DNA of 33,269 nucleotides from assembly GCA_016192205.1 (NCBI GenBank), contig JACPUP010000050.1, positions 1 to 33,269 of the forward strand, written 5' to 3'. This document shows positions 1,673-20,203 of this stretch, in pieces. The stretch comes from Candidatus Kerfeldbacteria bacterium (lineage in GTDB: Bacteria > Patescibacteriota > Patescibacteriia > SBBC01 > JACPUP01). Below the pieces are notes generated by a model that was not told the origin of the DNA, did not search any database, and saw only the letters and a program-made list of their open reading frames with translations. A program made the translations under genes and the position numbers. Each line of letters begins with the position of its first letter. Within the stretch, counting starts at the first letter, position 1.

Positions 1673-1746
1673 GCGGGATTCGTACAGTGGTAGTACACTG
1701 GCTTCCCAAGCCAGAGAGGCGGGTTCGATTCCCGTATCCCGCTCCA
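1673..1746 (+). tRNA. tRNA-Gly(CCC)
   Basis: Acceptor GCGGGAT/ATCCCGC, anticodon arm CTGGC-TTCCCAA-GCCAG, T-loop GGTTCGATTCC, encoded 3' TCCA. Confidence 0.96.
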
Positions 1747-2663: not shown

Positions 2664-2739
2664 GCCGAAGTAGCTCAGCTGGTAGAGCAGTGCTTTCGTA
2701 AAGCAAAGGTCGTGGGTTCGAATCCCACCTTCGGCTCCA
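2664..2739 (+). tRNA. tRNA-Thr(CGT)
   Basis: Acceptor GCCGAAG/CTTCGGC, D-arm GCTC-AGCTGGTA-GAGC, anticodon loop TTCGTAA, T-loop GGTTCGAATCC, 3' TCCA; 76 nt. Confidence 0.96.
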
Positions 2740-16883: not shown

Positions 16884-18272
16884 CTAACTCGCCGACTTCG
16901 CCGCCAGCACCACCAACGGGGTGCGCAACAGAATCTGGAGGTCGATCCGCAGCGACCAATTCTCAATGTAGAAGGTGTCGAGCCGCACCTCCTCTTCGAA
17001 GGACAAATCCGACCGGCCGGAAATTTGTGCCATCCCGGTAATCCCTGGCTTGATTTCCAACAGCTTCAAGTGATGCTTCTCGTACTTGGCGACCTCTTCC
17101 GGTTCATGCGGCCGCGGACCAACGAGGGACATCTGACCCCGAATGACGTTCCAGAGCTGCGGCAACTCGTCGATGGAGAAGCGACGGATGAACCGGCCCA
17201 CGCGCGTGACACGCGGATCATTTTTTATTTTGAACAGCGGTCCGTCCCCGCGTTCATTCAGCGCAACGAGATTCTGCTTCAGCGCCTGCGCGTTCTTGAC
17301 CATCGACCGGAACTTGTAGACAACAAAGGGCTTCCCCTTCTCACCGATGCGCTGGAGCGAGAGGAAGACCGACCCTTCCGAGTCGAGCTTTACCGCGATC
17401 GCCGTCACGACGAACACGGGCGAGAGGATGGTGAGCAGCAGCGTCCCGAAGACCGCATCAAACACACGCTTGAGGATTCGTCCCCACCCATCAAGGGCCG
17501 TCCGGCGAATTTCCAAGATAGGTACACCGCCGATGGCGCTGATGTCAATGTTCGAGACTTGCGCGTCAAAAATGTCCGCCGCGTACTTGAAGATGATATG
17601 GTGTTGCGCGGCAAAATCCAGCAGGCGCTGCCGGTGCGCACGATCGAGCTGCGGGTCGGCAATCACGATCTCGTCGAAATGCAGCAGCGCGCGTTTCTCC
17701 GCGAGCGTGGCCAGGGCTGCATCCGAGGCATCATCGAGCCGCTGGACGACCTTGAACCCTAACAGTTTATTGGTCGCGAGGTAGCCGATGAGGTCCTCGG
17801 TGGTCTGATCGGAACCGACGACCACGATCTGGTGGACACCGATGCCTTTCCGGAAGAACGCATGCTGGATGGCCCGCACCACCAGGCGGCCGAACGAGAC
17901 GAAGAGCATCGCCAACACCCAGCCAGCTAGGATGATGAACCGCGAGGAGAACAGGTCACGGTTGAAAAACGTCAGCAGGACGATGAGGACGAATCCGGTT
18001 GAGCAGGCCAGGAAAATTTTAGCTATCTCGTCAACCGCCCGCCGTGTGGCGCGGAAAGCGTACAACCCTGACATGGCAAAGATGGCGATCCAGCCGACGA
18101 GCACGAGCACGATAATGCGGGCGAACTCACCGAACGGGAGTTCGTACAACACCGGACGGATATCGGTCAGCGCGGTGAAACGCAGGTAGTACGCAACGCT
18201 CGCTGCGGCGAGCAGCATGAGAATATCAACCGGAACGAGGAGGGCTGAAAACGCAAGCTCAGAACGTTTCAT
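16884..18272 (-). CDS. Priming polyprenyl-phosphate hexose-1-phosphate transferase (WcaJ/CpsE/WbaP family)
   Basis: N-terminal TMs, KRVFD, YKFRSM, DPRVTRVGRFIRRFSIDELPQLWNV..MSLVGPRP, KPGITG; start set at MKRSE, outside the RNase P gene. Confidence 0.95.
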   Translation of the reverse strand: MKRSELAFSALLVPVDILMLLAAASVAYYLRFTALTDIRPVLYELPFGEFARIIVLVLVGWIAIFAMSGLYAFRATRRAVDEIAKIFLACSTGFVLIVLLTFFNRDLFSSRFIILAGWVLAMLFVSFGRLVVRAIQHAFFRKGIGVHQIVVVGSDQTTEDLIGYLATNKLLGFKVVQRLDDASDAALATLAEKRALLHFDEIVIADPQLDRAHRQRLLDFAAQHHIIFKYAADIFDAQVSNIDISAIGGVPILEIRRTALDGWGRILKRVFDAVFGTLLLTILSPVFVVTAIAVKLDSEGSVFLSLQRIGEKGKPFVVYKFRSMVKNAQALKQNLVALNERGDGPLFKIKNDPRVTRVGRFIRRFSIDELPQLWNVIRGQMSLVGPRPHEPEEVAKYEKHHLKLLEIKPGITGMAQISGRSDLSFEEEVRLDTFYIENWSLRIDLQILLRTPLVVLAAKSAS

Positions 18273-18278
18273 ACGCAT

Positions 18279-18300
18279 GACCCCGCATGGCAGCGGGGTC
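18279..18300 (-). other. GC-rich hairpin without U-tract between rnpB and the sugar transferase
   Basis: GACCCCGC/GCGGGGTC 8-bp stem, 6-nt loop, 6 nt before ATG 18272. Confidence 0.6.
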
Positions 18301-18314
18301 TCTCTGGTCGAGGC

Positions 18315-18893
18315 TTGCCGGAGAAAGCCTGTAAGCCGAATTCTGTCCACCTCCGCCAAGGCTCCGGCGGACAAGTTCTTCGTTGAACGTGCCTGCCAGC
18401 CGAGGCCTCGGCGAAGGCTGGATGATCATCTCTCTGGTCCGGCCATTGCTGACCGGTTCTAGCGACCAACCCGTCCCGCCGGAAAGCGGGACCTACTTGG
18501 TCTTGCACCGGGTAGGGTTTGCCCCAGTCCGATTTCACAATCGGTCTGCGTGGGCTCTTACATCCACCTCCGTCCGGGTTGAGCCGGACTTTGGCGGACG
18601 AGTCGTCATCCGACTCCCCACGATTTCACCCTTGCCGTGTCCCGATAAGGAAGGACGTCAGGCGGTATGTTTCTGTTGCCAGCGCTGCCCGTCCTTACGA
18701 ACAGGCAGGCTGCGACCGAGCGCGGTTCGACTTTCCCTGGGCTTCGTTCAAGTTCAAAGATTCGCGCGAGCGCCTTTGACACTTCTACTCCCGGTCCCCG
18801 TTAGGGACTACCCATTTTCAAGGTGTTCGGACTTTCCTCTCCCCGCGACGCCGCAAAGCGAGCGGACAGCGATCATCCGGCTTTCTCCGGCAA
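18315..18893 (-). ncRNA. rnpB: RNase P RNA (type A-like, unusually long, ~580 nt)
   Basis: Perfect 15-bp P1 (18879-18893 with 18315-18329); CR-I GAGGAAAGUCC (18829-18839); CR-II AACAGAAA (18670-18677); AAGGGUGAAA; GCAAGACCAA; CR-V ACAGAAUUCGGCUUA (18332-18346). Confidence 0.96.
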
Positions 18894-18898
18894 CCGAT

Positions 18899-18927
18899 AC
18901 TATACCCGACAATACCCGCACTGTCAA
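18899..18927 (-). promoter_or_regulatory. Near-consensus sigma70 promoter of rnpB
   Basis: TTGACA, 17 nt, TATAGT, ending 5 nt before the P1 5' strand. Confidence 0.85.
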
Positions 18928-18952
18928 TGCGGGGTTGGATCAAGGAATGCAC

Positions 18953-20203
18953 CTACGACAGAAATCGCACTGCGCCGGACCGCACGGCCTCGTCGGCGTA
19001 CAAGAACATCCCGGCTGACCAGGCCTGTTCGACGAACCCGCGCGGCTCGCCTGTTTGACCGTGGAACCATTCGTTGAACTCCCACTCCACCGTCTTGCCC
19101 CGGCGGTTGAGCTCGGCCAGCTGCGCCAGCTCGCGCTTCGCCTCCACCATCCGCCCCGCCTTGACGAGCGCGGCCACGTAGAACCCGCCAATGAACGGCC
19201 AGATGCCACCGTTGTGGTACTGGTGCGGCAAGTTGAGGTTGCCAAAACGGTAGTAATACCGCCAGTCCTTCTGGTTCGGATGGATGGGCGGATCAATGGC
19301 GCGGATGGGAAATGGTTTGGCCAGGCCGCGACGCTCGATGAACGCCAGAATGGCCTTCCCCTGGAGTGGTGAGGCCACGCCCGTCAAGATGGCGAGGAGG
19401 TTGCCGAGCGTATCGAACCACTCGCCAAAGTCCTTGAACGTCACGTACGGCAAATAGTACGATGCAGCGCGGAGGATGGTCTTTTTGGGCAGGATGAGCT
19501 TCCGGCCCAGGCGATCCTTCCCCGAGACGAACCGATTGAAGTAGCTCCGCTGGATAATGGCGGAGAGGTCTTGGTCTGGTGTGTACCACAGAAAATCGTT
19601 GACCTGCCGTTTGACACCGGTACTTAACGCCCGATAGCTCCGGGCGCGTGCTGCCTGGCCGAGTTGGCGCGCCCACCGGCTGGCTCGCGCCAGCGCAGCC
19701 GCGTACAGGACATTGAGCGTCAAAGCTTTATCGCGGACAGCGAACTGGTCTTCCCAGTCCGCGCCCTCGCGCATGTGAATAAGCCCGCTCTGGTCCACGT
19801 CCTGGTGGGCGTACCAGTCGAGCGTTTTCGTCACCGATGGCCAGAGCCGGCGCAGGAACGCTCGGTCGCGGTGTCGCTCGGCGACAGCCGTAATGCCGAT
19901 GACGTACCAGAGGCCGCTGTCCGCACCGGCAGTGTAATTCGGGCGCCGCGTCTCGACTGAAACGTTGTTCGGAATGAGGCCCAGGGGCGTCTGGAATGTG
20001 GCGAGCGCGGCAATGCTTGAACGGATAGCCGTCTGCAGTCGGGCGTCATCAACGAAGAGCGCGCCGAGTGCAGCAATCATGCTGTCACGTGCCCAAACTT
20101 GATAGTGCTCGGACGGTCGGGCCGACGCCTTGATGCCGAGAGGATGCGTGCAGTCGCGCAGGACGCGGGTGGCTTCAACGCGGGCTTGTGCGATGAGATT
20201 CAT
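18953..20203 (-). CDS. Six-hairpin glycosidase, GH100 (neutral invertase)/glycogen-debranching C-terminal-like
   Basis: YQVWARDSMI, DWED, FDTLGNLLAIL, YHNGGIWPFIGGFY, EFNEWFHG..QAWSAG; SD AAGGAG before ATG 20203. Confidence 0.8.
   Translation of the reverse strand: MNLIAQARVEATRVLRDCTHPLGIKASARPSEHYQVWARDSMIAALGALFVDDARLQTAIRSSIAALATFQTPLGLIPNNVSVETRRPNYTAGADSGLWYVIGITAVAERHRDRAFLRRLWPSVTKTLDWYAHQDVDQSGLIHMREGADWEDQFAVRDKALTLNVLYAAALARASRWARQLGQAARARSYRALSTGVKRQVNDFLWYTPDQDLSAIIQRSYFNRFVSGKDRLGRKLILPKKTILRAASYYLPYVTFKDFGEWFDTLGNLLAILTGVASPLQGKAILAFIERRGLAKPFPIRAIDPPIHPNQKDWRYYYRFGNLNLPHQYHNGGIWPFIGGFYVAALVKAGRMVEAKRELAQLAELNRRGKTVEWEFNEWFHGQTGEPRGFVEQAWSAGMFLYADEAVRSGAVRFLS

Follow-up and report, generated by a model that had tools for sequence, protein, structure and literature searches.

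A long type A RNase P RNA gene with four peripheral expansions in a Candidatus Kerfeldbacteria genome

The rnpB locus and its conserved core

In the present study, a stretch of 33,269 nucleotides (the window) from a Candidatus Kerfeldbacteria genome, contig JACPUP010000050.1 of assembly GCA_016192205.1, was analysed. A cmscan search of the whole window gave a match to RF00010 with 163.7 bits, against a gathering score of 100, and an E-value of 2.9e-51, extending over model positions 1-367 (Table 1). An initial annotation of this DNA had described the gene, rnpB, as an oversized RNase P RNA of about 580 nt, which the full-model match of 573 nt bears out. The remaining Rfam matches in the window were two tRNA genes, tRNA-Gly and tRNA-Thr, and no Rfam intron family, group I and group II models included, scored above its gathering threshold anywhere in the window. 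The sigma-70-like promoter of rnpB ends about 10 nt upstream of the 5' end of P1, and the promoter search returned this one site, where 50 shuffled sequences gave 0.2 on average. Downstream of the gene, 14 nt from the 3' end of rnpB, is a G+C-rich hairpin (18281-18302) that has no U tract and was not called a terminator. An ORF of 496 aa encoding a bacterial sugar transferase (PF02397) was found at 16884-18374. If translation began at its first TTG (18374), the ORF and the 3' end of rnpB would overlap; the ATG just past the 18281-18302 hairpin is the more likely start.

The source genome (G000) is a metagenome-assembled genome of 880 kb in 69 contigs with 96% completeness, in which rnpB was the only match to RF00010. 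The relatives of the RecJ protein encoded next to rnpB carry titles from the Patescibacteria or Parcubacteria group, one of them being Candidatus Buchananbacteria with 48% identity, in agreement with the CPR organism that the initial annotation had guessed. The protein subunit, for which a check had been proposed, is also encoded: RnpA was found as a 115-aa frame at G000:C63:26717-27031 with a PF00825 score of 86 bits (cut-off 22.3). RNase III is encoded in the same genome (135.3 bits). A search of G000 for 23S rRNA found nothing, in a genome that is 96% complete and with a gene class that is often unassembled.

The cmscan alignment contained all conserved regions from CR-I to CR-V, including both strands of P4, and small additions relative to the model in P3 and P12. 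P13 and P14, the signature of type A, are both present, the P13 stem being kept with its loop branched. Because P17 is deleted in the alignment, P16/P17 is a single hairpin, as the initial annotation had supposed, and given the missing P17, P6 is probably missing too. The GGU of J16/15, which in the M1 RNA of Escherichia coli pairs with the CCA end of the tRNA, is retained. P11 comprises five base pairs with AA in the 3' strand, the segments GU...GCA pairing with GGC-AA-AC. The accessible text of PMC1874661 gives five base pairs broken by AA in the 3' strand as the signature of bacterial P11.

Type B was considered as an alternative class and rejected. P13, P14 and P16 are present, and rnpB is for this reason not type B; moreover, J5/7 of the G000 gene carries no hairpin. 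The sole type B resemblance is an additional element close to the P10.1 site. All the sequence-level criteria that were tested place the rnpB RNA in class A.

Table 1. Features of the rnpB locus and the tRNA genes, in coordinates of the window
Feature	Position	Strand	Basis or remark
rnpB, bacterial type A RNase P RNA, 573 nt	18316..18888	-	RF00010, cmscan
Sigma-70-like promoter, TTGACA-17 nt-TATAGT	18899..18927	-	11/12 matches to consensus
CR-I (5' strand of P4)	18828..18839	-	identical to consensus GAGGAAAGUCCG
P8 hairpin, UAACG loop	18794..18808	-	cmscan alignment and reading by coordinates
Extended P9, 56 nt vs about 15: GGG/CCC closing stem, AGUA//GAA-type internal loop, extension helix	18738..18793	-	
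P10 5' strand and first 2 bp of P11, GGGAAAGU	18730..18737	-	matches model P10/P11 consensus
50-nt insert in P11 5' strand, opposite AA bulge	18680..18729	-	small hairpin 18729-18713 and 14-bp hairpin 18712-18680
J11/12 (CR-II)	18666..18677	-	cmscan alignment
P12, ordinary length	18630..18665	-	36 nt vs sample median 35
Branched P13, stem 18622-18617/18554-18549	18549..18622	-	74-nt element
Hairpin 13a	18600..18616	-	92% paired, 3/5 pairs with compensatory changes
Hairpin 13b	18562..18599	-	only 64-75% paired in model-fitted alignment
P14, GNRA (GUGA) loop	18524..18548	-	10/10 P14-helix pairs with compensatory changes, 7 sequences
P15 and single P16 hairpin, GGU of J16/15 present	18463..18505	-	P17 positions deleted in cmscan alignment
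P18, GNRA (GCAA) loop	18437..18456	-	cmscan alignment and coordinates
P19 hairpin, 75 nt, near-continuous helix of about 30 bp	18347..18421	-	-45.7 kcal/mol, z -4.84
CR-V (3' strand of P4)	18332..18346	-	identical to consensus
tRNA-Gly(CCC)	1673-1746		3' CCA genomically encoded
tRNA-Thr(CGU)	2664-2739		3' CCA genomically encoded

Four expansion elements

The gene has 573 nt against 367 model positions, and the extra length of about 200 nt consists of four structured elements, namely P9, an insert in the 5' strand of P11, L13 and P19. In the cmscan alignment, the interval from P8 to P10 measured 102 nt against 13 in the model, L13 measured 61 nt against 6, and 58 nt were inserted between the 3' strand of P2 and CR-V. 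The initial annotation had counted three large insertions; the sites that it named (P9, L13 and P19) were correct, and the number was one too low. In particular, the extra sequence of about 110 nt that it had placed in the P9 region is real but is not a single insert, being composed of P9 itself (18793-18738) and the P11 insert (18729-18680). The coordinates proposed for the L13 insert (18561-18615) and for P19 (18345-18419) were right to within 1-2 nt.

The extended P9, taken alone, folded no better than shuffled sequences (z -0.39). Directly 3' of it lies GGGAAAGU, which is followed by the 50-nt P11 insert (z -2.61 against shuffles), whose 14-bp hairpin carries a GNRA loop at 18698-18695; the rest of P11 (GCA) and the J11/12 consensus come after the insert. 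The cmscan alignment put P10 and P11 elsewhere, with low posterior probability and non-canonical pairs. The revised placement was preferred because in the relatives G007, G008 and G011 the consensus follows P9 at once and without interruption, and because it restores canonical pairs with the 3' strand together with the AA bulge. The assignment of helix P11 is therefore our own reading, supported by the sequences of these three relatives, which have no insert at this site.

The L13 insert comprises 55 extra nt (18616-18562) forming two hairpins, 13a and 13b. The motif G-UAAGAG (18561-18555) is contiguous and single-stranded and stands immediately before the 3' strand of P13, with both inserted hairpins on its 5' side; the insertion in L13 proposed in the initial annotation was thus confirmed, and the splitting of the conserved motif by it was not. 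The branched P13 of 74 nt folded with -40.5 kcal/mol (z -5.09), and none of 200 shuffled sequences folded as well. MAFFT combined with RNAalifold could not align inserts of unequal length, missing hairpin 13a in G000 and G001 and mispredicting 13b, and for this reason single-sequence folds and a structure given by hand were used.

Since the source is a metagenome-assembled genome in 69 contigs, chimeric or duplicated sequence introduced by assembly or binning might have inflated the gene. Against this, an independent contig of 3736 nt from sequencing run X4 (record 16) covers 18216-18988 with two differences and no gaps, and because this contig from a separate run matches throughout, the length of rnpB is not an assembly artefact. 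Moreover, BLAST of the insert regions revealed no internal duplication, returning the self match and short weak matches only, and all four elements recur in identical order in G001, a genome of another species. An artefact of this kind is accordingly hardly credible. In runs X3 and X4, a contig with a depth of 40-62 was also observed that joins 18348 to 18418 through 17 other letters. This contig looks like the rnpB of another organism in the same groundwater, in which a short P19 hairpin replaces 69 nt.

The elements among relatives

RF00010 was matched in 19 of the 21 genomes of the order that were searched and in 146 of 151 genomes sampled evenly from the class. Among the 17 order members in which both CR-I and CR-V anchors were found, the span between these anchors had a median of 492 nt, against 508 nt in G000, and was at least as long as that of G000 in seven; in the whole sample this held for 10 of 131. 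Gene lengths in the class, taken from full-model matches above the cut-off (n=129), had a median of 427 nt, with 14 genes of at least 500 nt and four, that of G000 included, of at least 573 nt. The longest relatives were G014 (692 nt), G011 (633 nt), G016 (625 nt), G019 (589 nt) and G001, of the same family (583 nt). The apparently short genes of G013 (329 nt) and G018 (334 nt) were rejected as misalignments, the distance from CR-I to CR-V being 519 and 548 nt, respectively. In these two genes (G013, L185:420-938; G018, L186:1063-1610), the model could not bridge the roughly 100 nt that separate CR-I from P7, or the long P19.

For comparison by segment, each RNA was dissected along the ordered chain of anchors with the fewest mismatches, which succeeded in 116 of 149 loci, the 33 failures being left out. 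The segment from P5 to P11 had a median of 112 nt in these 116 RNAs, against about 57 in the Rfam model and 151 in G000, and was at least as long as the latter in 15. For P13-P14, the median was 61 nt and G000 had 113 nt (five at least as long); for the 3' strand of P2 with P19, the median was 29 nt and G000 had 80 nt (13 at least as long). In the cmscan alignments of 18 relatives, 15 from the order and three from other orders of the class, inserts occurred in many combinations at P3, J5/7, P8, P9, P12, L13 and P19. These comparisons indicate that the expansions are inherited, typical for the order and common in the class, and are not peculiar to G000. The proposal of a novel structural variant accordingly stands in a weak form only, since the extra sequence occupies elements that are expanded across the order and has lengths usual there, which comes largely to the refuting case named in the initial annotation.

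A P9 of 51-65 nt with the same layout was present in all 15 order members dissected. Two of the three pairs of its closing stem showed compensatory changes, and RNAalifold on the MAFFT alignment recovered the closing stem only. An extra hairpin at the P10/P11 junction occurred in 12 of the 15, lying between P10 and P11 in ten and 5 nt further, inside P11, in G000 and G001. In G001, this insert forms a 14-bp hairpin at the same site, with a stem of wholly different sequence and a GCAA loop.

The L13 insert was found in seven of 19 order members (G000, G001, G007, G011, G012, G014 and G016), the other 12 having a plain loop. In folds of the relatives it consists of one to three hairpins, always on the 5' side of a GUAAGAG-like motif. 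An insert of 45 nt is nearly invariant in G007, G011, G012 and G014, which belong to two families, and the P14 stems next to it vary freely among these genomes. When a covariance model for the branched P13 was run over 149 sources from the order and the class, 22 gave a match of insert length and 43 a plain P13 of 22 nt. Model R2, run over 151 genomes of the phylum, returned no match at an E-value of at most 0.01, G000 included, and is too insensitive at genome scale to bear on the distribution beyond the class. No clear link appeared between the L13 insert and a P12 of at least 60 nt (6 of 17 RNAs with the insert and 19 of 99 without it), and related RNAs in these counts are not independent.

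The long P19 has the same conserved blocks in the eight order members aligned. In this alignment of 22 pairs, 90.2% of cells were paired, against 32-54% when the partner strand was slid, and four pairs had changes on both sides, a count reached by two of 500 shuffles. Between G000 and G001, identity is 91% in the segment made up of the P2 3' strand and P19, and 62-78% in the other segments. Model R1, built for P19, matched its eight training sequences and gave only weak matches elsewhere (L027, L054 and L049), in a search in which long G+C-rich hairpins score on the opposite strand too.

Other elements of the relatives were observed that are absent from the G000 gene. Many relatives of the order (L003, L004, L005, L006, L007, L011, L016, L019, L021 and L024) have a J5/7 hairpin, at the position that P5.1 occupies in type B RNAs, and in some of these P3 loops reach 79 nt and P12 extensions measure 83-98 nt. 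In the class relatives L026 (G023) and L020 (G026), only 13-14 nt separate J5/15 from J18/2, and in L029 (G030) 45 nt. The RNAs of these three genomes therefore lack P15-P18 wholly or for the most part, the CCA-binding loop included.

The variation among relatives bears on the reading that the inserts are neutral expansions in solvent-exposed loops, perhaps seeded by palindromic elements, which are retained but have no role. Length and sequence do vary greatly between families, and presence is patchy. In addition, a BLAST search of three insert regions against the own genome gave, besides self matches, two weak matches, one of which joins a 48-nt stretch of hairpin 13b to an insert at C62:337-383 with 79% identity (E 1e-4). 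However, the comparable match of P19 is antisense inside uvrB, so that both weak matches are possibly due to chance. Furthermore, P19 and the 45-nt type of L13 insert are strongly conserved in sequence, and the internal-loop motifs of P9 and the GNRA caps are conserved too. Neutral expansion is therefore regarded as an unlikely explanation.

The locus on C62 outside the window resembles a c-di-GMP-II riboswitch (RF01786; L167:292-417, minus strand of G000:C62), with a sub-threshold score of 44.4 bits against a gathering score of 53.5 and an E-value of 1.6e-7 from a search of 4.9 kb. Its apical loop holds an insert of 43 nt, and it is the opposite strand of this insert that is 79% identical over 48 nt to hairpin 13b, a likeness that may be chance. 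The ORFs overlapping the locus had no Pfam match.

Probable retention of the arms and comparison with known RNase P RNAs

The initial annotation had suggested, as an alternative to a structural variant, that the inserts are intervening sequences which are excised. In such a case they would be transcribed and then taken out or cut, perhaps by RNase III acting on the long helices of P19, P9 or the P11 insert. The active ribozyme would then be shorter, or its fragments would be held together by base pairing, as with the intervening sequences of bacterial 23S rRNA. RNase III is indeed encoded in G000, the P19 helix of about 30 bp is a plausible substrate, and the L13 insert is as sporadic in the order as a dispensable or mobile element might be. 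The rRNA genes of CPR bacteria are themselves known for insertions, as Brown et al. are said to have reported in 2015. Self-splicing was rejected as a form of this explanation, the inserts of 50-75 nt being too short for a group I or group II intron, which needs a core of about 200 nt or more, and no intron family being matched.

RNA evidence on excision comes from run X15, a sediment metatranscriptome. Record 6 of this run, a Logan contig of 328 nt with a depth of 7.9, is derived from a relative, about 82% alike, and is unbroken over 18618-18839, in a type of library that may also hold DNA or precursor RNA. It crosses the P11 insert and the long P9, and its coverage stops short of L13 and P19; the stretches of rnpB that are uncovered in X15, X3 and X5 are no evidence either way. 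In the relative, changes on both sides preserve the pairs 18707/18686, 18703/18690 and 18727/18715, one-sided changes preserve four more pairs, and the loop exchanges one GNRA sequence for another. Three pairs (18705, 18709 and 18716) look broken or obscured by nearby indels, in a table of differences that was read without nine substitution rows and 15 indel rows.

Inserts that are cut out might be expected to evolve freely, and this was not what was found: the P2-3'/P19 segment is more alike within the family than the core segments are, and the L13 insert of the 45-nt type hardly varies among four genomes from two families. Moreover, GNRA tips are kept on hairpins whose stems covary fully, the inserts contain no ORF, and the RNA-library contig runs unbroken through P9 and the P11 insert. 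Among the literature-search matches listed, as far as their accessible text goes, there was no precedent for an intervening sequence in RNase P RNA. Excision thus found no support and is disfavoured in this organism, and the intervening-sequence explanation as a whole is considered improbable. Conservation, covariation, GNRA loops, the intact GUAAGAG motif and the X15 contig together favour the reading that the inserts are expansion segments kept in the mature ribozyme.

We therefore consider it likely that rnpB is a single functional gene with a canonical type A core, whose four lineage-inherited arms are kept as buttresses or docking arms. With RnpA, the ribozyme is predicted to remove the 5' leaders of pre-tRNAs, through a catalytic core that is canonical in CR-I to CR-V, P4, P8, P11 (AA bulge included), P14, P18 and the GGU for CCA. 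The roughly 200 extra nt are peripheral expansions (the long P9, the insert in the 5' strand of P11, the branched L13 and the long P19), which probably remain in the mature RNA and may buttress the S- and C-domains or act as their docking arms, rather than being spacers that are cut out.

Compared with the M1 RNA of E. coli and the P RNA of Thermotoga maritima, the G000 RNA has the same helices P1-P5, P7-P16 and P18, with P13/P14, GNRA loops in L14 and L18, the GGU and an RnpA partner. It differs from type A in its P9 of 56 nt, the 50-nt P11 insert, the L13 branched by 55 additional nt, the P19 of 75 nt and the absence of P17. An extended P9 has a parallel in the type A P RNA of Deinococcus radiodurans, in which, according to the accessible text of PMC8457005, the extension is functional, L9 is an internal loop with G-A pairs, and the extension pairs with L12 in a pseudoknot (P9c). 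Both P9 elements are extended with an internal loop, whereas the CPR element differs in sequence and length, and inspection by eye of the P9 apex and L12 of the G000 RNA revealed no convincing complementarity.

The junction helix invites comparison with P10.1, which in type B RNAs sits exactly between P10 and P11. The accessible text of PMC1874661 names P10.1 as a signature of type B. Table 3 of PMC2858038 lists P10.1 in types B and C with P13/P14 lost, confines P13/P14 to bacterial type A, and gives type B as having P10.1, P5.1 and P15.1 and lacking P13, P14, P6, P16 and P17. As in types B and C, an extra S-domain helix stands at or beside the P10/P11 junction, on the 5' strand, which is a positional analogy only. 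Unlike those types, the G000 RNA keeps P13/P14, even enlarged, and the order has P13/P14 alongside the junction helix, which is the least expected point.

The elements also share with rRNA intervening sequences, and with the insertions of CPR rRNA genes, a patchy occurrence as stem-loops at the tips of conserved helices. The rRNA elements, however, are excised or are introns with ORFs, whereas those of rnpB are 50-75 nt long, partly conserved and GNRA-capped, and, unlike excised sequences, the P9 and P11 inserts were seen inside the RNA-library contig of a relative.

The general phenomenon of diverged and expanded RNase P RNAs in CPR bacteria is already published, as the accessible text of PMC8172020 makes clear. 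In that text, Lui, Nielsen and Arkin had to refold most CPR RNase P RNAs manually on account of 'large extensions of helices' or missing helices, among them an extended P15 and losses of P12, P13, P14, P16, P17 and P18, and found the GGU/CCA motif missing in 23 of 35. The G000 RNA, in contrast to those 23, keeps this motif, and it has an L13 insert, an insert at the P11/P10.1 site and a long P19, none of which is mentioned in the accessible text of that study. No description of a branched L13, or of an insert at the P10/P11 site, in a type A RNA was found in the literature searched, subscription journals and the supplement of PMC8172020 aside. The detailed architecture, combining a branched L13, a junction helix together with P13/P14, and a long P19, seems to be undescribed. 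Butler and Fuerst reportedly described in 2004 a planctomycete RNase P RNA with an insert in P13.

It is a tentative idea, and on balance a doubtful one, that this is an undescribed S-domain architecture, a type A core with P13/P14 to which a P10/P11-junction helix and a branched L13 are added, and in which the long GNRA-capped arm and the conserved P19 dock with each other or recruit a CPR-specific protein; a bolder form of the idea would have fragments cut by RNase III assemble non-covalently.

RNase P RNA is the reference case of one catalytic core with swapped peripheral stabilisers, and the expansions of rnpB parallel the rRNA peculiarities of CPR bacteria. On the practical side, standard covariance-model alignments misplace or truncate such rnpB genes, and checks of genome completeness that rely on rnpB are affected. 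The finding merits a comparative or structural study, and it would be no great surprise to a specialist. By the published rule, the buttress of the S-domain is either P13/P14, in type A, or P10.1, in types B and C, and the CPR order has P13/P14 together with an extra helix at or beside the P10.1 site, a branched L13 and a conserved long P19. If the arms are functional, these RNAs would represent a third way to build a specificity domain.
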